Shown piece after piece: positions 20,202 to 61,655 of a stretch of 64,000 nt of DNA; the first letter of the stretch is position 1, and the number at the start of each line of letters is the position of its first letter. The position numbers and the translations under genes are program-made. The notes under the pieces are model-generated. The model was not told where the DNA came from. It saw only the letters and a list, made by a program, of their open reading frames with translations, and made no database searches. The DNA is taken from contig OX044368.1 of assembly GCA_943846775.1 (NCBI GenBank), forward strand, positions 283,153-347,152, read 5' to 3'. Origin of the DNA: an uncultured PS1 clade bacterium (lineage in GTDB: Bacteria; Pseudomonadota; Gammaproteobacteria; PS1; Pseudothioglobaceae).

Positions 20202-21902
20202 TTATTCTGTTGAAGATATTCTCTCAACCATGAGTTGTAATGAAGCATTGCCACGCCAAATATTAATTGATAATTTGTAGGCAACTTTTACCTCATCTGA
20301 CTCAAGTGGCACTTGGAAAAATGCAATGGCATCATGCACTTGAGTATCACCTTTGAGCTTTAATCGGCATTTAAGGTGTTTTTCACCAACTACTTTTTGT
20401 TCAACAATTTCAAATTGACCATAAAAAATAGGCTCGTCGAATCCCTGCCCCCAAGGGCCAGCATTTTTGATGATTTCAGCATTTTCTAAAGAAATGTCAA
20501 ACCCTTCAAGCTCGCCATCGGTTAAGAGCTCTACTGTTGGAATTTGATCATTAAGATGAGCTTTAATAGCGTCGTTAAAAGCCCGCTTAAATGACCAAAA
20601 GTTTTCTGCTTTAATGCTTAAGCCTGCTGCCATTGCATGGCCACCAAATTTTAAAATTAAGCCAGGGTTTTCCCGGTCTACTAAATCTAGTAAATCCTTA
20701 ATATGCACGCTAGGAATAGAACGAATAGAGCCTTTTAAAAATTCTCCTGATTTAGCAAATACAGCTACAGGACAATGATAATCTTCTTTAAGCTTGCCAG
20801 CAACAATACCGACAATACCTTCATGCCAAGAAGGGTCGAATAAGCTAAGGGCAAATTTACCTTCAGATACTTCTTGCTCATCGACAATCGCTTGCGCCTG
20901 CTCTTGAATACGCGCTTGCTCTTGTTTGCGTTTTTGGTTGAACGATTCAAGCTCTTGAGCATAACGCCTAGCATCATTGATATCATTCGTTAACAAGCAC
21001 TTAATACCTCGAGAAATATCACTTAAGCGCCCTGCTGCATTTAGACGCGGACCTACAGCAAAACCCAAATCGCTAGCTTGTAAGGTTTGTACTGGCCTAT
21101 TGGCAATTTCCAGTAGTGCCAAAATTCCAGGGGCGCATTGCTTGGCTTGAATGCGTTTAATACCTTGATCAATCAAAATACGGTTATTTTGATCAAGCCT
21201 AACCACATCAGCCACCGTACCAAGTGCAACTAGATCAAGCACAGCACGTAGGTCTGGCAGAGGAATGCTATTTTTAGCAAAATATTGGGCTTTATTAAGG
21301 TGAGTTTTAAGCGCTGAGAACAAATAAAAACACACGCCAACCCCAGCAAGATTTTTACTTAAAAACTCGCATCCTTTAAGGTTTGGATTAATAATTGCGT
21401 CTGCTTCAGGAACATTGTCACTAGGCAGGTGATGATCAGTAATAATCACTTGAATACCTGATTCTTTCGCTAACTTAGTGCCATCAAAGCTAGAAATGCC
21501 ATTATCAACGGTGATGATTAAATCAGGTTGTTTTTTTTGTATAGCAAGCTTGACAATTTCTGGTGACAAACCGTAGCCATGCTCAAAACGATTCGGCACT
21601 AAAAAATCCACATATTTAGCACCCATGAGTCGTAGGGATTTGACCGCAACCACTGAGGCAGTCGCCCCATCACAGTCAAAATCGCCAATAATTAAAACAC
21701 GCTTTTGCGCTAATAAGGCTTGCTCTAACAACTTTAATGCTTGCTCAAGTTGAGAAAAATTAGGGCTGAGTAGATTAGCCAAACCTAGAGATAACTGCGA
21801 CTCGCCAACTCCCCGAGCAGCATAAATTTTCTTTAAAAAAGTGGGGATATCATCTGAGTAAGACTCAAATAAGGTTTGATCGAATTCTCTAGTTAGCATC
21901 AC
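20202..21902 (-). CDS. recJ: ssDNA exonuclease RecJ
   Basis: GDFDCDG, PNRFEHGYG, ITVDNG, TDHH, GGHAMAAG. Confidence 0.97.
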   Translation of the reverse strand: MMLTREFDQTLFESYSDDIPTFLKKIYAARGVGESQLSLGLANLLSPNFSQLEQALKLLEQALLAQKRVLIIGDFDCDGATASVVAVKSLRLMGAKYVDFLVPNRFEHGYGLSPEIVKLAIQKKQPDLIITVDNGISSFDGTKLAKESGIQVIITDHHLPSDNVPEADAIINPNLKGCEFLSKNLAGVGVCFYLFSALKTHLNKAQYFAKNSIPLPDLRAVLDLVALGTVADVVRLDQNNRILIDQGIKRIQAKQCAPGILALLEIANRPVQTLQASDLGFAVGPRLNAAGRLSDISRGIKCLLTNDINDARRYAQELESFNQKRKQEQARIQEQAQAIVDEQEVSEGKFALSLFDPSWHEGIVGIVAGKLKEDYHCPVAVFAKSGEFLKGSIRSIPSVHIKDLLDLVDRENPGLILKFGGHAMAAGLSIKAENFWSFKRAFNDAIKAHLNDQIPTVELLTDGELEGFDISLENAEIIKNAGPWGQGFDEPIFYGQFEIVEQKVVGEKHLKCRLKLKGDTQVHDAIAFFQVPLESDEVKVAYKLSINIWRGNASLQLMVERISSTE

Positions 21903-22440
21903 TCACCAAGCGCACATAAGCATCAAACGATTTATCTGAACTCTGACTACCGCCATAATAAAACGGTACGTCAATGGCGATACTATTACTTAGTTGATTA
22001 GAGCTCCAATAAGATTTCAATTGAGTATTTGGAAAAAACTGCTGATCAATGAGTAAATCATTATCGCCAAATACGAGTAAAGTTTTAAGTTCTGCTTGTG
22101 TTGGCAGGCGCCAGTCTTTCTGCTTACAAAGCTTGATGGCATTAATGGCTTGAACATATGCTTGCGTATTGCAAGACTCTGCCCAATGACAATTGTGCGA
22201 ATAATCGCCATTTTGAGTGCCTGTTTTCTCATCAAACCAAGTGTAGGTATTTTGGGTATTTTGCAAACCTTTTGCGTTAAGCTTGACCTCCCAAACCAGT
22301 TTTGATCGATCGTCTAAAACGCAACGATGATCAGCAGAAGTGTTGCTTAGAATCAAGCCTCGATCAGACACCTTAAAAAGCTTAGCGTTAGCCACGCTAG
22401 CAATTGATATTAAAATTGAAAATAATAATCTAGACGTCAT
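21889..22440 (-). CDS. Secreted DUF1566 (Lcl C-terminal domain) protein
   Basis: Signal peptide; V.D..S.L.WE, LC...DWRLPT..EL..L, FPN.....YWSS, VRLV motifs. Confidence 0.8.
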   Translation of the reverse strand: MTSRLLFSILISIASVANAKLFKVSDRGLILSNTSADHRCVLDDRSKLVWEVKLNAKGLQNTQNTYTWFDEKTGTQNGDYSHNCHWAESCNTQAYVQAINAIKLCKQKDWRLPTQAELKTLLVFGDNDLLIDQQFFPNTQLKSYWSSNQLSNSIAIDVPFYYGGSQSSDKSFDAYVRLVSDAN

Positions 22441-25348: not shown

Positions 25349-25440
25349 TTGTAAAATAATAATTAGCAGAAACAGTTGATTATTATAGGGGTTGTGTAGG
25401 TTATAATCTAGGATTTTATAAATCACAAAATGGAGAATTT

Positions 25441-26223
25441 ATGGGTTTCATGACTGGAAAAAAAGCATTGATTGTTGGCGTTGCTTCTAATCGCTCTATC
25501 GCTTGGGGTATTGCCGAAGCCATGGCAAAACAAGGGTGTGAAATTGCACTAACCTATCAAAACGAAAAATTAAAAAAACGCGTTGATAAATGTGCCGAAG
25601 TTTGTAACTCTAACATCGTGATTGAATGTGACGTAGCAACAGATAAAGGTATTGAACAAACCTTTACAGAGCTTAAAAAACATTGGGATAATTTTGACAT
25701 TATTGTTCATTCAGTCGCATTTGCACCTCGTGAAGCACTTGATGGCAACTACGTTGAAGCCACCACGCGTGAGAATTTTGCCACTGCACACGATATTAGC
25801 TCTTACAGTTTTACGGCATTGGCTAAATATGGCTCATCCATGCTTAACGACAATGGTGCGCTATTAACTGTTAGCTATCTAGGTGCGATTCGCGCCATTC
25901 CTAACTACAACGTCATGGGTGTTGCCAAAGCCTCGCTTGAGGCGAATGTGCGTTATATGGCTGCAGCTATGGGGCCTGAGCGAGGTATTCGTGTTAATGC
26001 GGTATCGGCAGGACCGATCAAAACCCTAGCTGCCTCAGGTATTAAAGACTTTGGAAAATTGCTGGACTATGCCGCGGACTCTTCAGCCTTAAAACGCACC
26101 GTCACTACAGAGGAAGTTGGCAATGCCGCGGCTTTTTTATGCTCAGATTTAGCCTCGGGCATTACTGGCGAAGTGACTTATATCGATTCAGGTTATAGCT
26201 TTTATGACAAAGGGCCTGAATAA
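25441..26223 (+). CDS. fabI: Enoyl-ACP reductase
   Basis: [36 protein letters not shown]. Confidence 0.97.
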
Positions 26224-26241
26224 GCATTAAACACTTAAAAC

Positions 26242-26273
26242 AAAAAAAGCCTTGATAAATCAAGGCTTTTTTT
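26242..26273. terminator. Bidirectional intrinsic terminator between fabI and the DUF302 operon
   Basis: aaaaaaagccttgat-aa-atcaaggcttttttt. Confidence 0.9.
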
Positions 26274-26277
26274 GTGT

Positions 26278-26733
26278 CTATTTATATTGATTTTTAACTT
26301 GTTTTAAGATGTTTTTCATATCTTCATTCCAGCGAAAAATCTGCATTCTATCTTCATCAGTCTCAACTAATGGTAATAAATTTATTGGAGGCGTGGCAAT
26401 GATCAATGTATGTATGCCCTCTTCCATAGCAGTTATCTTTAATGGAAAAAAAGGTGACAGCTTTGGATATTTCTTACTCATCGCCTGCATTTCATCATAC
26501 TGACCAAAAAACAAAATACGGTATTTATCTGATTTGTAATGACGCTCATTTAAAGCAAAGTCACAACGCTGAAGATAAGCTGCTTTATAGCCATTTGCCT
26601 TAATGGTTTTATCAAGTGCTAACCAAGTATAAGAAAACTTAGCATTCACTCGCTCGATCAGCAATTCACCTTGATTAGCAAAAGCATTTGAAGTAAAAAT
26701 TAAAACCCATAGAGCTAAAATTCTAACTACCAT
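26278..26733 (-). CDS. Secreted DUF302-family protein
   Basis: Signal peptide (AFA site); Y.ILFF, P.L....PLKI...EE pattern of DUF302; start overlaps the upstream stop. Confidence 0.6.
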   Translation of the reverse strand: MVVRILALWVLIFTSNAFANQGELLIERVNAKFSYTWLALDKTIKANGYKAAYLQRCDFALNERHYKSDKYRILFFGQYDEMQAMSKKYPKLSPFFPLKITAMEEGIHTLIIATPPINLLPLVETDEDRMQIFRWNEDMKNILKQVKNQYK

Positions 26734-27752
26734 ATCGCCTCCTCAACCATCTCTTTCATACTATCAATCAAATCCTTTGCTTCAATAGCAATTTGCTCAT
26801 TATTGAAACGAAGTACAGCATGCATATAGTTTTCTAAATAGATGTGCACTTCTCCTTGATCGTTTTCGATGACTGTCGCTCTACACGGCAACATAACACC
26901 TAGTCTCGGATCAAGCTTGAGAAATTTTTGCATGTTTTTAAAATTACAAAATCTGACCACAACCTGCTTTTCATCTTCAATTGACTGCTTTCCAAAGCCC
27001 TCAAATAAGGTTCTAGATGGGTACACTCTAAAATTATAAGCGGCAGCTGAATCTCTTAGTTTGTCAACTGTCGTTCCAAGATTATGTTGAGATTGGTAAA
27101 CAAATACCAACGGCTCTTTGGTTGCTTCAGGTTTATTATCAAACTGCGCTGACTTTTGATGTGAGCGAATATAAGCCACCAAGTCATTTGCCATTTGATC
27201 GGTAAAATTAAACTCTTTCTTAAACGACATCATTTCCGTATCTTTGATACCGTTCATGATAATGTGTTTAATCATTTGATCTTCAGCAGCATGCAAAAAA
27301 CCTTGATTAGCCAGTGCTGGCGGAGAGACCTCTCGATCTTTTTGCCATGAGAAATTTTTACCTGTACCTTCACCACCTTCTAGTTGTGAGCCATGACAAC
27401 GTTGACAATACTGCTCATAGGTATGTTTGCCTGCCTGCGCATCACCTGCAATGACTGCTTGGCTGTATTGAGGCGCTTTAACACCAGCACGCAAGAAACG
27501 AATCAACTTGGTCATTTGCGCATTAGAAAGATTAAACCCTGGCATAATTCTTCCAGGACGACCATATTTAATAGTTTTTTTAAGGTAATTATCTGAATGA
27601 TTGGCAATGGTTGAACGATACAACGGCAAACCTAAAGACCCTTGTTGAGAAAACCCGTGACACTTTTCACAATTTTCAAAATAAATTTCTTGTCCGCCAG
27701 CAAAACTTAACCAAGGTAGCAAAAAAATAATCAATAACTTCTTTGATTTCAC
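26727..27752 (-). CDS. Dihaem c-type cytochrome (CcoP-like class I domains) fused to a C-terminal DUF302
   Basis: Signal peptide; CEKCH and CQRCH haem motifs with candidate axial Met in GRIMPGF and TEMMSF; C-terminal FCN...DPRLGVMLPCR. Confidence 0.8.
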   Translation of the reverse strand: MKSKKLLIIFLLPWLSFAGGQEIYFENCEKCHGFSQQGSLGLPLYRSTIANHSDNYLKKTIKYGRPGRIMPGFNLSNAQMTKLIRFLRAGVKAPQYSQAVIAGDAQAGKHTYEQYCQRCHGSQLEGGEGTGKNFSWQKDREVSPPALANQGFLHAAEDQMIKHIIMNGIKDTEMMSFKKEFNFTDQMANDLVAYIRSHQKSAQFDNKPEATKEPLVFVYQSQHNLGTTVDKLRDSAAAYNFRVYPSRTLFEGFGKQSIEDEKQVVVRFCNFKNMQKFLKLDPRLGVMLPCRATVIENDQGEVHIYLENYMHAVLRFNNEQIAIEAKDLIDSMKEMVEEAIW

Positions 27753-30504: not shown

Positions 30505-31044
30505 TTATGTATTAGTTTTTGCTGATATTTTAAGCTGTTGAATTAACGGTAAAATTTGTGTTTTCCAGATCTCTGGTGTGAGCTGACCAATGCGCTTGTA
30601 GCGAATAATTCCTTGACTATCGACAAGAAAAGTCTCAGGTGTAGCATATACACCAAGCTCTAAACCTAAATTTCCCTGCTCATCAAATATAATTTGATCA
30701 TAAGGATTACCCAATCTATCTAAAAAAAACTGACCTTCTTTTCGCGTATCTTTGTAATTAACGCCAAGCATTTTGACATTACTGGATTGCGCAATTTCCA
30801 TTAACATTTGATGCTCTGCTCGACAAGTAACACACCATGAGGCCCAAACATTAACCATGGTTATATTGCCTTCTAGTTGAGATTGAGTTGTATAGCGCTT
30901 ATAAGTATTAAAATCTTCTACTTCTAGATTTGGAAAAGATTTACCAATTAAAGGAGAAGGAAGCTTTTTGGTATCACGGCCCAGACCATCAAACAAAAAC
31001 CACGCCAAAATAACAAAAACAGCTAATGGTAAAAATTTACCCAT
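30505..31044 (-). CDS. ccmG: Cytochrome c maturation thiol:disulfide oxidoreductase CcmG/DsbE
   Basis: LPSPLIGK, NVWASWCVTCRAEH, GVYATPETF. Confidence 0.93.
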   Translation of the reverse strand: MGKFLPLAVFVILAWFLFDGLGRDTKKLPSPLIGKSFPNLEVEDFNTYKRYTTQSQLEGNITMVNVWASWCVTCRAEHQMLMEIAQSSNVKMLGVNYKDTRKEGQFFLDRLGNPYDQIIFDEQGNLGLELGVYATPETFLVDSQGIIRYKRIGQLTPEIWKTQILPLIQQLKISAKTNT

Positions 31045-31047
31045 AAT

Positions 31048-31464
31048 TTACTTTTCAGCCTTTTCTAGCGCATCAGCTACTTCAGGTGGCATGTAGTTTT
31101 CATCATGCTTAGCTAATACCTCTGTTGCAATAAAAGTACCATTTACCAAAGAACCTGTCGTAATAATACCCTGGCCCTCTCTAAATAAATCTGGCAAGAT
31201 GCCTGTGTATTTAATTTTAAACGTCTCTTTATTATCAGTAACCTCAAAATTAACCGTCATATCTTCGCGTATGACACTGCCATTTGCAACCAGCCCGCCT
31301 AAGCGGAAACTTTTTCCAACTGGCGCTTTACCCTCAGCCACTTCAGTCGGCGAATAAAAGTAATTGGTATTACTGCCTAGCGCTTGTAGTAACAAAGTAA
31401 TTGCCAATATCGCACCCGCCACTAGCAAGGCCACTAACACCATTCTATTTTGTCGTTTTGTCAT
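31048..31464 (-). CDS. ccmE: Haem chaperone CcmE
   Basis: RLGGLV, LPDLFREGQG, LAKHDENYMPPEV. Confidence 0.96.
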   Translation of the reverse strand: MTKRQNRMVLVALLVAGAILAITLLLQALGSNTNYFYSPTEVAEGKAPVGKSFRLGGLVANGSVIREDMTVNFEVTDNKETFKIKYTGILPDLFREGQGIITTGSLVNGTFIATEVLAKHDENYMPPEVADALEKAEK

Positions 31465-31465
31465 G

Positions 31466-31627
31466 TTATAAATCCCTTAAATATTTAACTCGTAATTTTC
31501 TAATAGTGTCGAGGCGAGACTTTTTTGCTCTTAAAAATAAAAATGCAATCGTGACAAAAGTCAATCCATATGAAAACCAAATATAGACCGCATATTTGTC
31601 AAATACTAATTGTGCGAATATGTCCAT
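31466..31627 (-). CDS. ccmD: Haem exporter protein CcmD (53 aa; missing from the ORF track)
   Basis: Hand translation MDIFAQLVFDKYAVYIWFSYGLTFVTIAFLFLRAKKSRLDTIRKLRVKYLRDL; Y..YIW.SYG motif; TAATG overlap with ccmC. Confidence 0.9.
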   Translation of the reverse strand: MDIFAQLVFDKYAVYIWFSYGLTFVTIAFLFLRAKKSRLDTIRKLRVKYLRDL

Positions 31628-32367
31628 TATTTATCACCTTTTGTAATTAATGTCTTTACCCAGCCTGAATTTTGCTCTCGAATTAATACCTCATCACGTG
31701 CTCGCATTAACAGCAAAGCACCATACAAAAACTTAAAGGCAAAACTAATCAACATCAGTGAAATAAACATATCTATTTGCATTGACACTTTATTAACACT
31801 AATTGAAGAACCTTGATGTAGGCTATTCCACCATTCAACTGAATAATAAATAATAGGAATATTAACCAAACCCACAATTGCTAAAACAGCGCTGGCTTTA
31901 GAGGCTGTTTTAGGATTGTCAAAGGCATTATTAAGCGATATATAGGCCAAGTACAAAAACAACAAAATAAGCTCTGACGTTAAGCGTGCATCCCATACCC
32001 ACCAAGTGCCCCACATAGGTTTACCCCAGACAGCGCCAGTTACCAATGCCAAAAACGTAAAAGCAGCGCCAATAGGTGCCGAAACTTTTGCAACGATATC
32101 GGCCAATTTGATTTGCCAAATAAGGCCAATAGCACTTGCGACCGCCATCACAATATAAATCAATAAACTCATCCATGCCGCAGGCACATGCACATACATA
32201 ATACGAACGCTATCGCCTTGCTGATAATCTGCAGGCGAAATGATGAGTGCCCAATACAACCCAACTATCGTTAAACCGATAAAAGGATACAAAAACCAAG
32301 GAATAATTTTCGCACTAATTTGATAGAAATTTTTAGGGGAGGCAAATGCCTGAATCCATTTCCACAT
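31627..32367 (-). CDS. ccmC: Haem exporter protein CcmC
   Basis: YVHVPAAW, WGKPMWGTWWVWDARLTS, WWNSLHQ. Confidence 0.97.
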   Translation of the reverse strand: MWKWIQAFASPKNFYQISAKIIPWFLYPFIGLTIVGLYWALIISPADYQQGDSVRIMYVHVPAAWMSLLIYIVMAVASAIGLIWQIKLADIVAKVSAPIGAAFTFLALVTGAVWGKPMWGTWWVWDARLTSELILLFLYLAYISLNNAFDNPKTASKASAVLAIVGLVNIPIIYYSVEWWNSLHQGSSISVNKVSMQIDMFISLMLISFAFKFLYGALLLMRARDEVLIREQNSGWVKTLITKGDK

Positions 32368-38540: not shown

Positions 38541-38986
38541 ACTCACAATATTTACATAATTTATACAATTCTCGCCAGTCTAAAACTTATAGTGATGTCT
38601 CGCAATTATTTGAATTAAATTATCAAAAAATTCTTAAGCTCATTCCTTTGATTGAGCAAACAGCTCATACTAGTGTGATTCTCCATCCTAGTCATCCAGA
38701 CTTATATCTAATGGTGGAACAGCGTTTTGCTCATACGGGTATTTTTACGTTGACGCATATTCTTAAAGAGAATATTCATAAACCCGATATTAAATTTAAA
38801 GTCTATTTTGATGCGCAGCTCGTTGAAGTGCTGTCAGTTTGCAATGAAACTGTATTAAATAGTGAACACCCCTATTTAACTCAATGTAGCGATTTAAATA
38901 TACAATGGGAGCTAAACTTATTTATCGAAAAATGGCTAGACTATTGTTTGGACCAATACCAAGGAAAACCATGGCAGACACTGTAG
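38531..38986 (+). CDS. DUF1249 (YqiB-like) protein
   Basis: E.NY..I.KLIP, PD..FKVY.DAQL.EV, LN.F...WL.YCL. Confidence 0.8.
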   Translation: MDLNSQYLHNLYNSRQSKTYSDVSQLFELNYQKILKLIPLIEQTAHTSVILHPSHPDLYLMVEQRFAHTGIFTLTHILKENIHKPDIKFKVYFDAQLVEVLSVCNETVLNSEHPYLTQCSDLNIQWELNLFIEKWLDYCLDQYQGKPWQTL

Positions 38987-39873
38987 ATCCAAAGGCTAAA
39001 AACAAACTAGTGATTGCGATTTCTTCTAGAGCATTATTTGATCTAGATCAATCGCATCAAATCTTTAAAAAGCAAGGGGTTGAGGCCTATGCTAAGCATC
39101 AAGAAGAGAACGAGAATGTCGTCTTACCACCAGGCGTTGGCTTTTCTTTGGTCAAAAAATTACTAGCACTCAATACCAAAAAAAATCCAATCGATGTTAT
39201 TTTGCTCTCTAGAAATAGTGCGGATACGGGTCTACGTATTTTTAACTCGATTGAACACTACGACCTTAATATTTCACGCGCCGCTTTTACTCGTGGAGAA
39301 AGTACGCACAACTTGGTTGGCGCTTTTGAAGCAGATTTGTTTTTATCTAGCAACTATCAAGATGTGCAAAAAGCTTTAGAATCAGGCTTTGCCGCTGCCT
39401 CAATTGTAGGTGCAAGCTCTAAAGATGCTCATGAAACACAACTTAGAATTGCCTTTGATGGAGACGCTGTTATATTTTCGGATGAAGCTGAAAAGATATT
39501 TCAAGAAAAAGGCATTGATGCTTTTGAAGAAAATGAACGAAAATCTGCTAATGTAGAGCTTAAAGCAGGGCCATTCAAGTGTTTCTTAAAATCATTACAT
39601 AAGATTCAATCAGCTTTTCCTGTTGAAAACAATCCTATTCGCACCGCACTCGTCACTGCACGCTCTGCCCCTTCACACAAACGTGTTATTCATACGATGC
39701 GTGAATGGGGTATTCGTATCGATGAATCGTTTTTTTTAGGTGGGCTCGATAAAGGGGTTTTTTTAAAAGAGTTTAGTGCTGATATTTTCTTTGATGATCA
39801 ACACTCGCATTGCGAATCTGCTTCTCAATATGTGCCTACTGGGCATGTTCCTAATGGCATCTCAAATTCATGA
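38971..39873 (+). CDS. 5'-nucleotidase (cytosolic IB-like family)
   Basis: LVIAISSRALFDL, LLSRNSADTGLR, RIAFDGDAVIFSD, LVTAR, DIFFDDQ; AAGGA RBS before ATG 38971. Confidence 0.88.
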   Translation: MADTVDPKAKNKLVIAISSRALFDLDQSHQIFKKQGVEAYAKHQEENENVVLPPGVGFSLVKKLLALNTKKNPIDVILLSRNSADTGLRIFNSIEHYDLNISRAAFTRGESTHNLVGAFEADLFLSSNYQDVQKALESGFAAASIVGASSKDAHETQLRIAFDGDAVIFSDEAEKIFQEKGIDAFEENERKSANVELKAGPFKCFLKSLHKIQSAFPVENNPIRTALVTARSAPSHKRVIHTMREWGIRIDESFFLGGLDKGVFLKEFSADIFFDDQHSHCESASQYVPTGHVPNGISNS

Positions 39874-40779
39874 CTTTTGACACTCGGGCTTTTTTTAGTA
39901 GCGCCTTATCAACAGCCAAAGTTATTGTATTTACGGTGATTCCTTATTTTTTACTGGCTGAATTACTTATGTATTTTGAGTTAATGCCTATCATTGCTCA
40001 AGTGTTTGAGCCTTTTACTACTTTGCTTAACCTGCCACCAGAGGCAGCACTAGCGCTGGCTTCAGGTGTATTTCTAAATTTATATGCTGCTATTGCCTTT
40101 GCCGCTCCTTTAGGATTAAGTGTTTATGATTGGACTGTTTTGGGATTGTTCTTAGGCGTATTACATTCTATTCCAATCGAATCAGCAATTATGAAAAAAT
40201 TGGGTATTGATTGGTTACACTCAGTTGGTTTTAGACTAGTCATGGCCTTTGTTGTGCTGACGCCGCTACTCATTATCCCAACGGAGCTCTTATTTGACAA
40301 TCCGGATCAAATTGCCAGCGCCCTATATCAGCCTACATTAGTTGTGGCGGATAATTTCACCGACTTTATATTGCAAAAAAGTTATGAGGCCACCTTACTG
40401 GCGGTTGAGATTATTATTTTAGTCAGTTTGGTTATTTTTGTTGTAACGATTATCAAAGGTTTAAAAATTTTACAAAAATTTGATCACCATCTCAGTACAG
40501 TTATGGCGCTAGTTACCGGCTCTACTAATTGGTATTACTTATGGTGCAGGCGTGCTTCTCAAGGAAGCTCGCTATATGAGTAAAAAACAAGTGATCTCAG
40601 TGTGTTATTTTTTAATGGTGGCGCACGCTATTATTGAAGACACCTTACTGTTTGTATTTTTTGGCGCTGATATTTTCTTGCTCATAGGAATTCGTTTATT
40701 TTTTGCTATTATTGTGTTTTTTCTCATCTCTACTTATTACAATACAAGTGACACTGAATACAAGGCTAAAGCCTTGTAA
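39870..40779 (+). pseudogene. Nucleoside-recognition (Gate) domain membrane protein with a +1 frameshift
   Basis: Removing one base at about 40520-40521 turns GSTNWYY into GLLIGITYGAGVLLKEAR and joins the two ORFs, ending in HAIIEDTLLF. Confidence 0.7.
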
Positions 40780-40824: not shown

Positions 40825-42093
40825 ATGAGCAAGAAAATCCAGGCCATTCGTGGCATGAACGACCTTCTACCCAAAGACTCTAATCTTTGGACGTTTGTCG
40901 AGCGACATATGAGCGATTTATTTGCCTCTTACGGCTATAAAAATATTCGCACGCCGGTTGTTGAAAAAACTGACACCTTCTGTCGTGCCATTGGTCAAGC
41001 AACAGATATTGTTGAAAAAGAAATGTACTCTTGGAAAGAGTCTAATGGCGACTCTTTAAGTTTACGCCCTGAAGGCACTGCAGGTTGTGTGCGTATGATG
41101 ATTGAACATAATCTACCACGTGAAGGCATTCAAAAAGTCTTTTACCAAGGCGCGATGTTTCGACATGAGCGACCGCAAAAAGGACGCTATCGCCAATTTC
41201 ATCAAGCAGGTCTAGAAGTATTTGGTGCACCAGATGCCAAAGTAGATGCTGAGCTGATGATGATCACGCACAGTCTTTGGCAAAAACTTGGCTTAAAAAA
41301 CATCACGCTTGAAATTAATACCCTTGGCTCTAGTGAAGCCAGAGCGAGCTATCGAGATATTTTAATTGACTACTTTTCCTCTCGTAAAGACCAATTAGAT
41401 GAAGACAGTCTTAGACGCCTTGAAACTAATCCATTAAGAATTCTTGATAGTAAGAACCCAACTATGCAAGATTTAATTAATAACGCGCCCAAACTAATGG
41501 CGCATTTAGATGAAGAATCTGCCCAGCATTTTGAACAATTCAAAGCATATCTAAACGCTTTAAATATTGACTTTGTTATTAATACGCGCTTAGTTCGCGG
41601 GCTTGATTACTACAATCGCAGTGTATTTGAGTGGACCACCACTGATTTGGGTGCTCAAGGTACGATTTGCGCCGGCGGACGCTATGACAGTCTGGTTGAA
41701 AAAATGGGTGGCAAGCCAACGCCTGCTGTTGGACTAGCCATTGGCCTGGAGCGTCTTATTTTGCTATTAGAGGCACAAGAAGTAACTACCCAACAGCAAC
41801 AGCTTGCTATTTATATTATTACCCCAGATAAAGAAGCGCAACTCAAATCGATGCAAATAGCCAGCACGCTTCATCAAGCGCTTGCTAATGTTACTATTTA
41901 CAATGACATAACAATGGGTAGCTTAAAGAGTCAATTCAAAAAAGCCGATAAAGCTGGTGCCGATTTCGCCTTAATATTGGGCGAAGAAGAATTAAATAAT
42001 GACCAAGTTAGCATTAAACCATTAAAATCTCAAGAACAACAATTAACATTAAGTCTTGATGAGGCGATTAAGTATTTTAAGGATCACACATGA
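40825..42093 (+). CDS. hisS: Histidine-tRNA ligase
   Basis: IRGMND.LP, LRPEGTA, ERPQKGRYRQFHQ, LVRGLDYY. Confidence 0.98.
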   Translation: MSKKIQAIRGMNDLLPKDSNLWTFVERHMSDLFASYGYKNIRTPVVEKTDTFCRAIGQATDIVEKEMYSWKESNGDSLSLRPEGTAGCVRMMIEHNLPREGIQKVFYQGAMFRHERPQKGRYRQFHQAGLEVFGAPDAKVDAELMMITHSLWQKLGLKNITLEINTLGSSEARASYRDILIDYFSSRKDQLDEDSLRRLETNPLRILDSKNPTMQDLINNAPKLMAHLDEESAQHFEQFKAYLNALNIDFVINTRLVRGLDYYNRSVFEWTTTDLGAQGTICAGGRYDSLVEKMGGKPTPAVGLAIGLERLILLLEAQEVTTQQQQLAIYIITPDKEAQLKSMQIASTLHQALANVTIYNDITMGSLKSQFKKADKAGADFALILGEEELNNDQVSIKPLKSQEQQLTLSLDEAIKYFKDHT

Positions 42094-42704
42094 AAAATTT
42101 TATTGAAGTAGGAAAAACTGAAGACGAGCAGGCTCAGCAAATCAAAAAATGGTTAAAAGATAATGGCTTGCAAATTGTCGCCGGTATTGCGCTTGGATTA
42201 GGTGGAATTTGGGGATTGGGCGCTTATAAAACTTACCAGCAGCAACAGTCCGTTGAAGCTAGATCCTTATATTTAAATACCGCATCAACAGATAATGTAG
42301 CGGCTTATGAAGCCTTAAGCGCTCAGCATTCTGATAGTGGATATGCACAACAAGCAACTTTGATATTGGCAAAAACCGCTGTTAAAAGTCAAGATTATCA
42401 ATCTGCCTTGCAACATCTATCCACATTGGTTAATGATGATAATCATTTAATTGCTATTATTGCCAATATGAGAATAGCCAGCATACAGCTTGAAATGGGT
42501 AAATATCAAGAAGCAATTGATACACTAGATAGTAAAAACCCTGGCGAGTTTAATGGCCTATATAGCCAACTCAAAGGTGATATCTATGTGGCCAACAATC
42601 AAATTGAAAAAGCCAAAGAACAGTATAAATTAGCTTTGAGTCAAATCTCTAGAGATTCAGAACTGCAAAGCCTAATCAGCATTAAACTCGCTGACCTTAA
42701 CTAA
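42090..42704 (+). CDS. yfgM: YfgM-like TPR membrane protein
   Basis: TE.EQ...IK.W...NG, one TM segment, TPR-like region, GDI......A...Y; follows hisS. Confidence 0.85.
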   Translation: MKNFIEVGKTEDEQAQQIKKWLKDNGLQIVAGIALGLGGIWGLGAYKTYQQQQSVEARSLYLNTASTDNVAAYEALSAQHSDSGYAQQATLILAKTAVKSQDYQSALQHLSTLVNDDNHLIAIIANMRIASIQLEMGKYQEAIDTLDSKNPGEFNGLYSQLKGDIYVANNQIEKAKEQYKLALSQISRDSELQSLISIKLADLN

Positions 42705-53831: not shown

Positions 53832-54134
53832 TTAAACCTCGATATAAATTTCGTTATTCTCTTGTTTGACAGGATAAATATGCATATTATCCACATCTTC
53901 TTCTGAACTATCGCCAGTAGCCAAGTCAAAACTATAGCCATGTAAAGAGCATTTTACTCGATTACCCTTTAGACAACCTAGTGTTAACTCGATATCCTCA
54001 TGAGGACAACGATTCTCAGCACAATACAAATGACCATTATTTAAGGTAACAAATAATTTTTGACCTTTAACTTCCACTTCGACCATCGTGCCCTCTTTAG
54101 GAGGGCTATTAAGAACCTTGTACCAATGAGACAT
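53832..54134 (-). CDS. Rieske [2Fe-2S] ferredoxin
   Basis: NRCPH and KCSLHG ligands; start MSHWY via TAATG overlap. Confidence 0.88.
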   Translation of the reverse strand: MSHWYKVLNSPPKEGTMVEVEVKGQKLFVTLNNGHLYCAENRCPHEDIELTLGCLKGNRVKCSLHGYSFDLATGDSSEEDVDNMHIYPVKQENNEIYIEV

Positions 54135-54739
54135 TAAAATAAACTCCAAATACTATTACTATTTAACTCAGATTCACATTGCTGAAGTTGACGCTGATAA
54201 CGCTGTGCATTATCTTCAACCTTGCGCGCTACTTTTTTCAACCAAGGCTTCTTATTGTAAGATTGCCTTTGAAACCCACCATGACCTTCATGATAAGCCA
54301 AGTACTGATTGTAAGCATCAGATTTAGCAATACCCGCTAATTTTGCAGACTGATTAACATACCAGCCAACGAAATCTGCTGCATCATCAAAATCATCACG
54401 ATCTGCACTATGATTGCCTGTTTTTAACTGATACCATTCCCATGTTTCATCTTTAGCTTGAGCAAAGCCATAAGCCGTTGTTGGTCTAAACCACGGCACT
54501 ACACCAAAGAGTTTTTCTCTAGGCGGTTTAGCGTCTGAGGCAAAATGAGACTCTTGATACATAATGGCTAAAGACACATGTGCTGGTGCTCCATATTTTT
54601 TTTCAGCGGCTTTAACAGAACGATACCAGCTCACTTCTTCATCCATTAATGTACAGATGTTATTAACAGTCACTGCAGGTGTTGAAAAACACCCACTTAA
54701 AGCAAGTGACAAGAATGCTAATAATAAAATTTTGCTCAT
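54134..54739 (-). CDS. Lipoprotein with lytic transglycosylase (SLT-like) domain
   Basis: Lipobox LSGC; AIMYQES.F, AYGFAQA...TW, QYLAYHEG..G. Confidence 0.8.
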   Translation of the reverse strand: MSKILLLAFLSLALSGCFSTPAVTVNNICTLMDEEVSWYRSVKAAEKKYGAPAHVSLAIMYQESHFASDAKPPREKLFGVVPWFRPTTAYGFAQAKDETWEWYQLKTGNHSADRDDFDDAADFVGWYVNQSAKLAGIAKSDAYNQYLAYHEGHGGFQRQSYNKKPWLKKVARKVEDNAQRYQRQLQQCESELNSNSIWSLF

Positions 54740-56924: not shown

Positions 56925-57965
56925 ATGAAACTAATTATTGATGACGCTTGCTACGCCTATGAAACCATATTCTCTCAATTTGGAGAGATTGTCGCTATGG
57001 CTGGGCGTGATATTAACGCCAAATCTGTCAAAGATGGTGACATACTTATTGTGCGTTCGCGTACTCAAGTTAATGAGCAATTACTCAAAGGCAGTTCGAT
57101 CAAATTTGTCGGCTCAACCGTGGCAGGACTTGACCATGTCGATCAAGACTATCTAAAAAATAATAATATTGAATTTTTCTCAGCTCAAGGCTGCAACTCA
57201 ATGGCAGTAGCTGAATTTGTTATTAGCACTATTTTAAATTTAGCTGACAAGCATCAGTTTAATCATCAGCAAAAAACTTTGGGAATTATTGGTGTGGGCA
57301 ATGTAGGCTCACGCCTAGCCGCTAAAGCAGAACTGTTAGGCATTAAAACCTTACTTAACGACCCAATTAGACAGCAAAATGAAAATTTGCCAAATTTTGT
57401 TGATTTAGATACTGCACTCAGCGCTGATATTGTTACCTTTCACACACCTTTGACATTTGACGGCGAATTTCCGAGCTTCAAACTACTAAATCAGACGAAT
57501 TTTCATCATATTAGTGAAAAAACCATCCTTTTTAATGCGGCACGCGGCGGAGTGATTGATGAAAAAATTTGGGAAAAAACGAAAACGCTTGAAAATGTGA
57601 TTGATTGTTGGGAAAATGAACCAAACATTAACCAAAATTTACAAAAAACGGCGTATTTAGCCTCACCTCACATCGCTGGACACTCTGTTGATGCCAAATT
57701 TATGGGAAGTTTTATGGTTTATGAGGCTTTATGTAAATTTTTAAATGAAAATCAGCAAGAAAATATCAAAAATTTGATAAATCCTGGGATTTTGACGCTA
57801 AAAAGTGATAATTTACTTGACGCCCTTAACGAGATTTACGATTTCAAACAAGACACGCTAGCTATTAAAAAAATTGAAAATTTTGAATATTACCGTCGAA
57901 ACTACCCAATTCGCTATGAATGGCCCCATTACAAAAGCATGGTTAAGCTACCTATTGTGAATTAA
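56925..57965 (+). CDS. pdxB: Erythronate-4-phosphate dehydrogenase
   Basis: VRSRT.V...[32 protein letters not shown]. Confidence 0.88.
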
Positions 57966-58754
57966 TTTTTTTGCATAGAGTGAATATAAGGGTAAGCCAG
58001 TTAATAACAAACCACCAACAAGATTACCGAGTAAAACAGGTATTTCATTCCAAATAAAGAATTCTGTCAATGAAAAGTCAGCGCCCATTGCAATTGCCAT
58101 TGGAAATAAAAACATATTAACTATTGCGTGCTCAAAGCCCAAATAAAAAAACAACATAATTGGCATCCACATTGCGATCGCTTTGCCGCCAACTGATTTT
58201 GATACTTTCGAGCCAACCACTCCCATTGATACCATCCAGTTGCATAATACGCCAGCTATAAAAACTGTTAACCATCCAAACAAGCCATATTGGGCATAGC
58301 CTAACGTTCTGGACTCTCCGATGCTAGCAATTTTTAACCCAATACTGTTAGGCTCTATAGAGTAGCCATAAGTCATAAAAAAACTAAAGGCAAATACAAC
58401 ACTCAGCGCCCCTAAGAAATTACCAATAAATACCCAAAGCCAGTTTTTAAAAATTTTATTGATTGAAACACCTTTTCTATGATTTAGCAAAGCAAGTGGT
58501 GCTGTAACGAACATACCTGTTAACAAGTCTAAACCTAAAAGATTCAACATAATAAAACCGACTGGAAATAATACTGCGCCTAATAATACTGAACCCGTAT
58601 TCACTGAAACGGAAATTGCAAAAGCAGCAGCAAGGGCTAGAATTGCACCTGCAAAATACGAGCTAATTAATGTTTGTTTAGCTGACAGTGAAATTTTAGA
58701 TTCGCCAAGATCAATAATATCTTTAACAAATTCTTTTGGGCTTAAATAAGACAT
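57948..58754 (-). CDS. Formate/nitrite transporter (FNT) family channel
   Basis: [36 protein letters not shown]. Confidence 0.9.
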
Positions 58755-60776: not shown

Positions 60777-61655
60777 ATGATTAATTACACTTTAAAACAA
60801 ATGTATAGCTATGAAGCTGTTATTCGACTGAAAAGCTTTACTAAAGCTAGCCAAGAGTTACACATCACTCAACCTGCTGTTTATATGCAAATTAAGCAAT
60901 TACAAGAAAGCCTTGGTTCAGAGCTCATTAGCATACAGGGAAAGGCTATTAGACCTACTTTTATTGGAAAAAAATTTTATCAAACTAGCCTTGATATAAT
61001 TGATAAATTAGAACAAAGTAAGGCAGAAATTGAACAAACACTTGACCCTGAAGCTGGCCACTTACAAATTGCCGTAGCCACAACTACCAACTCATTTGTT
61101 AGTCAAATTTTGGCAAAATTTAAAAAACAATATCCACGCATGTCTTTTTATTTAGATGTAACTAATCGAGAATCTTTACTTACAAAGCTCAGTAATAGTG
61201 AAGTGGACCTAATTATTATGGGTGAGCCACCGACAAACATGTCTTTGATTACGCAGCCTTTTATGGAAAACCCTTTAATTGCCATTGCCCATCCAGAACA
61301 CCCTCTGCTTAACAACAAAAACAATACTATTAGCGACTTAACTCATGAGACACTTATCACTAGAGAGCAAGGGTCAGGAACACGCATTACCATTGAAAGG
61401 ATTATTGGTATGCAGTTAAACTCGGATATTGAGATTAACTCTAATGAAGCTATCATCCAAGCTGTTCAAGCTGGATTGGGTATTGGGTTTGTATCAAAAC
61501 ACACAGTTAAATTAGAGCTCGAAAACAATGTTATCAAGCAACTTGATATTGATAAATTCCCTATTACCCGTCATTGGTATGTTGTGCATCATTCTAAAAA
61601 TAAACTTTCACCGATTGCCGAGCGCTTTAAAGAATTTATAGTTGCAAATAGTTAA
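60777..61655 (+). CDS. cbbR: LysR-family regulator, CbbR-like
   Basis: TLKQ, SFTKA..ELH.TQPAV.MQIKQL, V.NRE.LL..L, MGEPP, FMENPL, REQGSGTR, SNEAI.QAV.AGLG. Confidence 0.7.
   Translation: MINYTLKQMYSYEAVIRLKSFTKASQELHITQPAVYMQIKQLQESLGSELISIQGKAIRPTFIGKKFYQTSLDIIDKLEQSKAEIEQTLDPEAGHLQIAVATTTNSFVSQILAKFKKQYPRMSFYLDVTNRESLLTKLSNSEVDLIIMGEPPTNMSLITQPFMENPLIAIAHPEHPLLNNKNNTISDLTHETLITREQGSGTRITIERIIGMQLNSDIEINSNEAIIQAVQAGLGIGFVSKHTVKLELENNVIKQLDIDKFPITRHWYVVHHSKNKLSPIAERFKEFIVANS

Follow-up and report, generated by a model that had tools for sequence, protein, structure and literature searches.

We analysed a 64,000-nucleotide window (contig OX044368.1, positions 283,153 to 347,152, assembly GCA_943846775.1) from an uncultured bacterium of the PS1 clade, and two adjacent genes on its minus strand, here called A and B, constitute a conserved, expressed two-gene module that is previously undescribed. 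A encodes a secreted dihaem c-type cytochrome fused to a DUF302 domain that keeps a pair of cysteines, and B encodes a second secreted DUF302 protein that is translationally coupled to A. The core unit is the DUF302 A/B pair, and the cytochrome is an optional part of it. DUF302 is a widespread family with three solved Protein Data Bank (PDB) entries and no known function. As a preliminary description of this locus had stated, no function is established for the family: our literature search on DUF302 returned no functional study and no assigned role, and neither the fusion nor the A/B pairing has been described in the literature searched.

The architecture of A rests on highly significant profile matches. 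The protein matches Pfam Cytochrome_CBB3 in two stretches (82.7 bits) and Cytochrom_C (59.6 bits), and its C-terminal domain scores 36 bits (E 6.3e-9) against Pfam DUF302 (PF03625), for which the gathering cut-off is 23 bits. A profile of this domain matches PDB entry 1q9u with an E value of 1.2e-10. An AlphaFold2 model of A (predicted local distance difference test score, pLDDT, 81.5), compared with known structures using Foldseek, yields template modelling (TM) scores of 0.70-0.86 to the targets 7tj1, 1q9u and 1j3m, which places the domain in the TT1751-like alpha/beta fold. Profile score and fold thus agree that the C-terminal domain of A is a DUF302. The N-terminus of A, MKSKKLLIIFLLPWLSFA/GG, forms a Sec-type signal that has no lipobox, and a hydrophobic N-terminus is found in every A homologue. 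Together with this export signal, two CxxCH motifs, each with a downstream methionine, define A as a dihaem cytochrome of class I c-type (c4/CcoP-like). The 51 homologues of A (35-99% identity) are nearly all full length and carry the three Pfam domains of A; the closest of them, at 65-99% identity, belong to the SUP05-clade Candidatus Thioglobus, Ruthia and Ruthturnera.

An alignment of 45 A homologues reveals that C28, C31, H32 and M70 of the first haem domain and C116, C119, H120 and M174 of the second are invariant. Because both CxxCH motifs and one downstream methionine per domain are invariant, the haems appear to be of the His/Met carrier type, in which the methionines would serve as distal ligands and the haems as electron carriers rather than catalysts. 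The DUF302 domain of A contains the motifs NFR, RFCNF, PRLG, LPCR, FNN and EEA. Cys269 of RFCNF and Cys290 of LPCR are each at least 90% conserved in the same alignment; C269 ends one strand and C290 begins the next. The Pfam matches and this alignment bear out the preliminary description of A as a secreted protein in which two CxxCH class I haem domains are joined to a DUF302 that retains its FCN and LPC cysteines.

B is best regarded as a DUF302 protein by fold and by conservation across loci, not by Pfam score. It reaches 14.8 bits against Pfam DUF302, below the 23-bit cut-off, and many of its homologues carry a precomputed PF03625 match. B has no match in NCBIfam and no meaningful match to the PDB by sequence. 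The top five PDB matches of its AlphaFold2 model (pLDDT 85.4) are 1q9u, three chains of 7tj1, and 1j3m, with E values of 1e-6 to 1e-5 and TM scores of 0.64-0.76. Its signal peptide reads MVVRILALWVLIFTSNAFA/NQ. B had been described as lacking the cysteines that A keeps, and this holds for the FCN and LPC cysteines, in whose place B has FFG and FPLK; B is nevertheless not cysteine-free in this clade, since it contains Cys57 (QRCD), a residue conserved in part of the family only, in whose place 31 of 76 pairs have Val or Ile. The invariant residues of B comprise R28, Q55, D58, Y71, R72, F75, P97, E105 and W135, with K99 also in the set, and D58 aligns by eye with an aspartate of 1j3m and 7tj1. 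In all, approximately 20 polar residues are invariant in A and approximately 12 in B, and the two secreted paralogues show complementary retention of the DUF302 motifs.

Residue 268 of A (26949-26951) and residue 57 of B (26563-26565) covary perfectly over the 76 pairs, Arg268 occurring with Cys57 in 45 pairs and Tyr, His or Phe268 with Val or Ile57 in the remaining 31. We discount this covariation as evidence of a contact, the alternative state being confined to one clade and attributable to a single event.

The association of A with B is deeply conserved. A scan of species-representative genomes recovered relatives in more than 523 species, from which the best 80 loci were kept and two were added to give 82 related loci. 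Across these loci a B homologue lies immediately 3' of A. B is present, as it is in the window, in 79/79 related loci that keep the cysteine pair and whose contig allows the check; three loci hold B fragments that run off the contig end, and one more contig ends too early to judge B. Among these best-matching loci the named carriers are mostly sulfur-oxidising, namely Thioglobus, Ruthturnera, Thiothrix, Sedimenticola, Chromatiaceae, Thiohalomonadaceae and Ectothiorhodospiraceae.

The stop codon of A overlaps the start codon of B in 79 of the 82 related loci, by 1, 4 or 7 nt, and by 7 nt (ATGGTAG) in the window. The 83 junctions, window included, comprise 35 with the overlap ATGA, 16 with GTGA, 14 with ATGGTAG/A, eight with TGATG or TAATG, and a remainder of seven with TTGA or an ambiguous overlap. 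At window positions 26738-26752 and at the equivalent junctions of the related loci (L001-L082), the conserved Glu-Glu-Ala of A is encoded by GAGGAGGC, which doubles as the Shine-Dalgarno sequence of B; this sequence or a close variant precedes most junctions, those of the SUP05 clade above all. The EEA protein motif and the translation signal of B constrain each other, and both vanish in the one clade that has no partner. The coupling should give A and B in a ratio of roughly 1:1. The overlap, the GAGGAGG element and the DUF302 fold of B together uphold the earlier proposal of a second secreted DUF302 coupled translationally to the first.

The partner-less clade consists of three Ruthturnera-like loci (L015-L017), which lack the cysteine pair and which represent the only real absences of B (3/3). 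In their A proteins the cysteines are gone (RFFN and LPLR are found instead), as are NFR, PRLG, FNN and EEA, and both haem motifs are kept. This joint loss of the cysteine site of A and of B ties B to the DUF302 site of A, and it shows that the cytochrome can persist alone, without DUF302 site or partner. The conservation and co-loss strongly suggest a functional partnership of A and B. The genes that follow the fusion in L015-L017 encode two proteins, a multi-pass membrane protein of 393 aa that resembles NnrS by eye and one of 147 aa that resembles hemerythrin by eye.

The pair can likewise persist without the cytochrome. Many short proteins were retrieved with a profile of the A-type DUF302 domain. 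Part of them are fragments; the rest include full stand-alone A proteins, 147-165 aa long and secreted, in which RFCNF and LPC are retained. The latter come from Thiothrix lacustris (P0119), from Thiotrichaceae (P0097), and from low-GC genomes (P0153, P0160, P0165, P0168 and P0191), where the RecJ encoded beside P0153, P0160 and P0191 is 57-59% identical to RecJ of the window. Every stand-alone A examined is followed by B with a 4- or 7-nt overlap, in the same junction pattern as the fused type, and no cytochrome gene lies near the stand-alone A/B pairs examined. In Thiothrix caldifontis DSM 21228 (locus L020, 5971-8058), a fused A, a free A and B stand in a row, so that fused and unfused A occur together next to one B. 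A neighbour-joining tree of A domains has the unfused forms nested at two distinct positions, which implies that the cytochrome was fused or lost at least twice. Such recurrence argues that the DUF302 chemistry exchanges electrons with c-type cytochromes, and the fused and unfused forms of A represent a Rosetta-stone link between the pair and these cytochromes. The claim of a redox module built on haem must be amended in this light: A and B co-occur as proposed, but the haem is not intrinsic to the module, given the cytochrome-less pairs of Thiothrix lacustris, Thiotrichaceae and the low-GC relatives of the SUP05 clade.

The A-type DUF302 subfamily is small. An exhaustive profile search of 1.84 billion representative sequences yielded 30 clusters at a threshold of E <= 1e-30 and, at E <= 1e-10, 156; fusions of ~330-375 aa and stand-alone forms of ~145-170 aa are both among the top matches. 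The wider family also includes secreted proteins with two DUF302 domains in tandem (DUF302-DUF302).

The pair ends, as previously noted, at a strong terminator. The intrinsic terminator shared by B and the convergent fabI contains a 16-bp stem with a folding energy of -21.1 kcal/mol (z = -6.9), and 0/200 shuffled sequences fold as well. At the other end, the GTG start codon of A is preceded by a purine-rich stretch. A promoter scan of the 124-nt gap upstream of A found no minus-strand sigma-70-like promoter, and A may be transcribed from a promoter of its own or by read-through from ppiD.

Near-identical sequence occurs in marine and salt-marsh metagenomes. Metatranscriptome contigs of 3.3-3.5 kb that start near the 5' end of fabI span the pair at a word depth of 130-370, which indicates that A and B are expressed in situ, with the qualification that such assemblies can contain DNA. 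The contigs of three salt-marsh runs all begin within window positions 25431-25481, at most 50 nt from the fabI start codon (25441). A transcript 5' end near the fabI start would fit this pattern, as would convergent fabI and B transcripts that overlap at their common terminator.

Comparison with characterised systems sets the pair apart. The C-terminal domain of A and the whole of B share their fold with the DUF302/TT1751-like family (PF03625; 1j3m, 1q9u and 7tj1), whose CN(P) and LPC cysteine motifs are kept in A and not in B. Known DUF302 structures are of stand-alone proteins, and the conserved-domain annotation gives the family as probably homodimeric. In contrast, A and B are two diverged paralogues, obligately and translationally coupled; both are secreted, and A bears a dihaem cytochrome. 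Cytoplasmic DUF302 proteins, 1q9u and 1j3m among them, likewise retain the CN(P)/LPC cysteines. Structure matching of the DUF302 parts gave confident DUF302-type matches only to uncharacterised proteins. The title of entry 7tj1 (Brucella abortus Bab1_1389), 'putative fluoride ion transporter CrcB', looks like a mislabel, since among structures this entry best matches a soluble DUF302 domain and also aligns to the DUF302-A profile; it lacks both family cysteines (FGNP and LPIR).

The closest sequence relatives of the dihaem part of A are the cytochrome domains of CcoP, c4 and NirS, with CcoP as the best match (3mk7_C, E 3e-7; TIGR00782, 42.4 bits). By structure, the N-terminal half of A matches dihaem cytochromes, among them the Kustc0457/0458 partner, QcrC and TsdA/TsdB. 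Like cytochrome c4 and CcoP, A has two tandem CxxCH...Met domains and a Sec export signal; unlike them, it has no membrane anchor, stands outside a ccoNOQP operon and carries the additional DUF302 domain. We rejected an assignment of A as CcoP, since its TIGR00782 score compares with an equivalog cut-off of 179.95 and no locus has a ccoNOQP context. NCBIfam returned only sub-threshold, generic cytochrome matches for A, and database labels of A and B homologues read 'c-type cytochrome', 'cytochrome c oxidase cbb3-type subunit 3' or 'DUF302 family' only.

SoxAX-SoxYZ and TsdBA offer a functional analogy only: in sulfur oxidisers they combine periplasmic c-type haems with cysteine-based two-electron sulfur chemistry. 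The fold similarity of TsdA/TsdB to the dihaem part of A is weak (E 4e-3 to 0.1), and A differs from the Sox and Tsd proteins in having no Cys-ligated haem and no SoxY GGCGG carrier arm and in lying outside a sox cluster. An identity of A as SoxX, SoxA or TsdA was rejected in view of its SoxX match (E 0.21, 12 bits against a cut-off of 61), its Met-ligated haems and the lack of sox neighbours. DUF302 genes do lie inside sox clusters of Acidithiobacillia, Thiohalorhabdus and Sulfitobacter, and SuoC of Synechocystis is encoded beside SQR. These proteins belong to the same domain family, share a context of periplasmic sulfur oxidation and are also uncharacterised, but each is a single gene of ~190 aa that lacks a cytochrome and for which no partner has been described. 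A and B have no match to Pfam DUF411, the family of CopG. CopG (DUF411)-cytochrome c fusions join a small periplasmic cysteine-site domain to a c-type cytochrome in some lineages, which suggests redox chemistry on a bound ligand; CopG itself holds a thioredoxin-like CxCC copper cluster, and its fold and motif differ from those of DUF302.

These observations suggest a possible mechanism. The core would consist of two diverged periplasmic DUF302 proteins, of which A keeps the cysteine pair and B its own invariant set. By analogy with DUF302 structures, which are reportedly dimeric, and with the tandem DUF302-DUF302 proteins, A and B would most likely assemble as an A·B pseudo-dimer in which one cysteine-pair site is intact. 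Electrons would be exchanged between this site and c-type cytochromes, which are part of A here and separate elsewhere. The dihaem domain, which A bears in this bacterium and in numerous further sulfur-oxidising Gammaproteobacteria, would connect the site to the respiratory chain, and electrons would probably flow from a two-electron oxidation of the thiols to high-potential cytochromes and cbb3 oxidase. The thiol step could be the conversion of dithiol to disulfide or the oxidative attachment of sulfur species, such that the cysteine pair would be oxidatively loaded with, or oxidised by, reduced sulfur species. Three observations speak for a thiol-based oxidation of, or by, sulfur species in which electrons leave through the haems: the haems resemble those of high-potential CcoP and c4, the named carriers are mostly sulfur oxidisers, and other DUF302 genes reside in sox clusters or by SQR.

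Taken as a whole, the reading of a DUF302 pair whose cysteine site is wired through a dihaem domain to the respiratory chain is one we hold tentatively, as a possibility short of a probability. The heteromeric redox complex proposed in the preliminary description is plausible as a candidate. That its substrate is specifically a sulfur species we consider rather unlikely. Similarly unlikely is the particular form in which A·B would be a periplasmic sulfur carrier or thiol redox enzyme that needs no cofactor and has so far gone unrecognised, and whose fused dihaem, in many sulfur-oxidising Gammaproteobacteria, feeds an aerobic or denitrifying chain. Several points count against the reading as a whole. 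The gene neighbourhoods hold no linkage to sox, dsr, SQR or cbb3 genes and give no functional hint, and the cytochrome-less pairs show that the DUF302 function needs no dedicated haem. Two adjacent periplasmic cysteines may simply form a structural disulfide. The bias towards sulfur oxidisers among carriers comes from the best 80 of more than 523 matches, and the likeness of sox-cluster DUF302 proteins to A and B is at the level of the domain family, not of established orthologues. Finally, the RNA evidence comes from assembled contigs, which can include DNA.

A structural disulfide is part of a plainer account, in which A is an ordinary c4/CcoP-like cytochrome and the DUF302 pair is a non-redox ligand, docking or regulatory module tethered to it. 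Periplasmic cysteine pairs are usually disulfides. Both haems of A are apparently of the His/Met carrier type, its nearest sequence relatives are cytochrome domains of CcoP, c4 and NirS, and the cytochrome stays conserved in L015-L017 after the DUF302 site and B are lost. However, the same cysteines are kept in the cytoplasmic proteins 1q9u and 1j3m, where structural disulfides are unlikely; the numerous invariant polar residues of A and B point to a specific site and not to a scaffold; and in the free-standing A/B pairs there is no cytochrome that could be tethered. We regard this account as doubtful. A still simpler alternative dispenses with the complex altogether: B would be an independently acting paralogue whose co-occurrence with A merely reflects tight operon inheritance, and it is compatible with the fact that the sole A-B covariation found, A-R268/B-C57, represents a single phylogenetic event. 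Yet the pair is kept down to ~30% A-domain identity and through complete turnover of neighbours, the stop/start overlap is conserved, the A site and B are lost jointly, and A and B retain complementary subsets of ancestral motifs, all of which render this alternative very unlikely.

The cysteine site could instead handle soft metals, A·B using the cysteine pair and, in this clade, B-Cys57 to bind Cu(I), Hg(II) or As(III). The haems would then reduce or oxidise the bound metal, for example as a periplasmic cupric reductase or as a chaperone for cbb3 oxidase or NosZ, in a manner analogous to the CopG-cytochrome c fusions. DUF302 genes are found in a copper and heavy-metal resistance island and in the ArsR-regulated suoC-suoT arsenic locus of Synechocystis; a further one adjoins ccoG in a microoxia-induced pair of Bradyrhizobium, one DUF302 co-occurs with CusF, and the three cysteines could converge in the clade that pairs Arg268 with Cys57. 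Against metal handling, none of ~90 loci links the pair to metal-resistance, cop, mer, ars or cco genes, a search of 72,556 plasmids, a frequent home of metal-resistance modules, returned no match to the pair, B-Cys57 is replaced in the 31 Val/Ile pairs, and A and B have no Met- or His-rich motifs. We judge it improbable.

If the bolder reading of a sulfur-loaded thiol enzyme is correct, A and B would provide the first function for a DUF302 protein and, next to Sox, SQR and FCC, a new route by which electrons from sulfur enter the chain. Sulfur oxidisers of the SUP05/Thioglobus group and its relatives abound in oxygen-minimum zones and hydrothermal symbioses, and a site that oxidises sulfur species or handles a metal would add a component to the periplasmic energy or metal metabolism of globally important bacteria. 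If not, A is one more accessory cytochrome. The main value of the system lies in making DUF302 function experimentally approachable, through an obligate A/B pair, a single cysteine site, and natural controls in the form of the cytochrome-less pairs and of the cysteine-less, partner-less clade.

Table 1. Features of the A/B locus and of the fused and unfused arrangement in Thiothrix caldifontis. Positions refer to the window unless L020 is given.
Feature	Position	Strand	Details
Gene A, secreted dihaem c-type cytochrome with cysteine-pair DUF302	26727..27752	-	Open reading frame, 341 aa, GTG start, TAG stop 26727-26729
Sec signal peptide of A, ~aa 1-19	27696..27752	-	MKSKKLLIIFLLPWLSFAG; sequence reading, putative cleavage site
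Haem motif 1, CEKCH, aa 28-32	27657..27671	-	Presumed distal ligand Met70 at 27543-27545
Haem motif 2, CQRCH, aa 116-120	27393..27407	-	Presumed distal ligand Met174
DUF302-A domain, aa ~213-341	26730..27116	-	Cys269 at 26946-26948, Cys290 at 26883-26885
Shine-Dalgarno of B, GAGGAGG	26738..26744	-	4 nt before ATG, inside codons for the A C-terminal EEA
Gene B, secreted partner DUF302, probable by fold	26278..26733	-	Open reading frame, 151 aa; AlphaFold2 and Foldseek fold; 76-sequence partner alignment
Bidirectional intrinsic terminator, common to B (-) and fabI (+)	26240..26275	.	16-bp stem, U-runs on both strands
ccmG, ccmE, ccmC	30505-32367		Upstream of the pair
Cytochrome-DUF302-A fusion	L020 5971-7020
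Free secreted DUF302-A	L020 7106-7582
DUF302-B	L020 7579-8058		4-nt overlap with free A

The surroundings of the pair were compared by clustering the five genes on either side of it in 83 loci (the related loci and the window), together with the contexts of six unfused pairs. The neighbours are housekeeping genes that are kept within clades only and differ between clades. The SUP05 clade shows the order ppiD, pair and convergent fabI; Sedimenticola and Chromatiaceae place the pair between CNP1-parE and parC; the low-GC relatives have it after recJ; and other loci have esterase, GGDEF, argH, cyaA or argA genes as neighbours. In none of these contexts do sox, dsr, sqr, cco, nar, nir, cop, mer or ars genes lie beside the pair. 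Linkage to sox, dsr, cbb3 or nitrate-respiration genes, whose co-occurrence with the pair the preliminary description had suggested examining, is not borne out, the neighbours being ppiD/fabI, parE/parC, recJ, argH and similar genes. That description had also pointed to ccmCDEG about 3 kb away. The ccmG, ccmE and ccmC genes do lie 2.75 kb upstream, but this synteny is limited to SUP05-type loci and two outliers (L018 and L024); we give the proximity no weight as a functional clue, and the ccm genes are probably incidental. The loci flanked by parE and parC include L001, L002, L029, L033, L063, L066, L069, L071 and related ones, with a 4-nt overlap with the parE end in L001. The gap between the two topoisomerase IV genes is an unusual site for a periplasmic redox gene pair.

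The rest of the window, which has a GC content of 37.8%, holds housekeeping genes: ppiD, hupB, ccmG/E/C, fabI, lspA, recJ and thrS, and further dnaB, alr, hisS, der, pyrG, msbA and argJ. Two genes not linked to the pair may bear on the lifestyle of the organism. A LysR regulator at 60777-61652 (+) has CbbR as its best match (249 bits, below the NCBIfam cut-off of 450), and a formate/nitrite-family transporter at 57948-58754 (-) scores 142.6 bits, below the NCBIfam cut-off of 232.3; together they hint, weakly at best, at an autotrophic lifestyle with nitrite handling. Four open reading frames of 200-320 aa (38905-39873, 39870-40583, 42090-42704 and 54134-54739) have no NCBIfam match at E <= 1e-10. 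Between recJ and a gene for a DAO-family (ThiO-like) oxidase, and overlapping both by a few nucleotides, lies a gene (21889-22440, minus strand) for a secreted protein of 183 aa that contains an Lcl C-terminal domain (PF07603, 81.7 bits).

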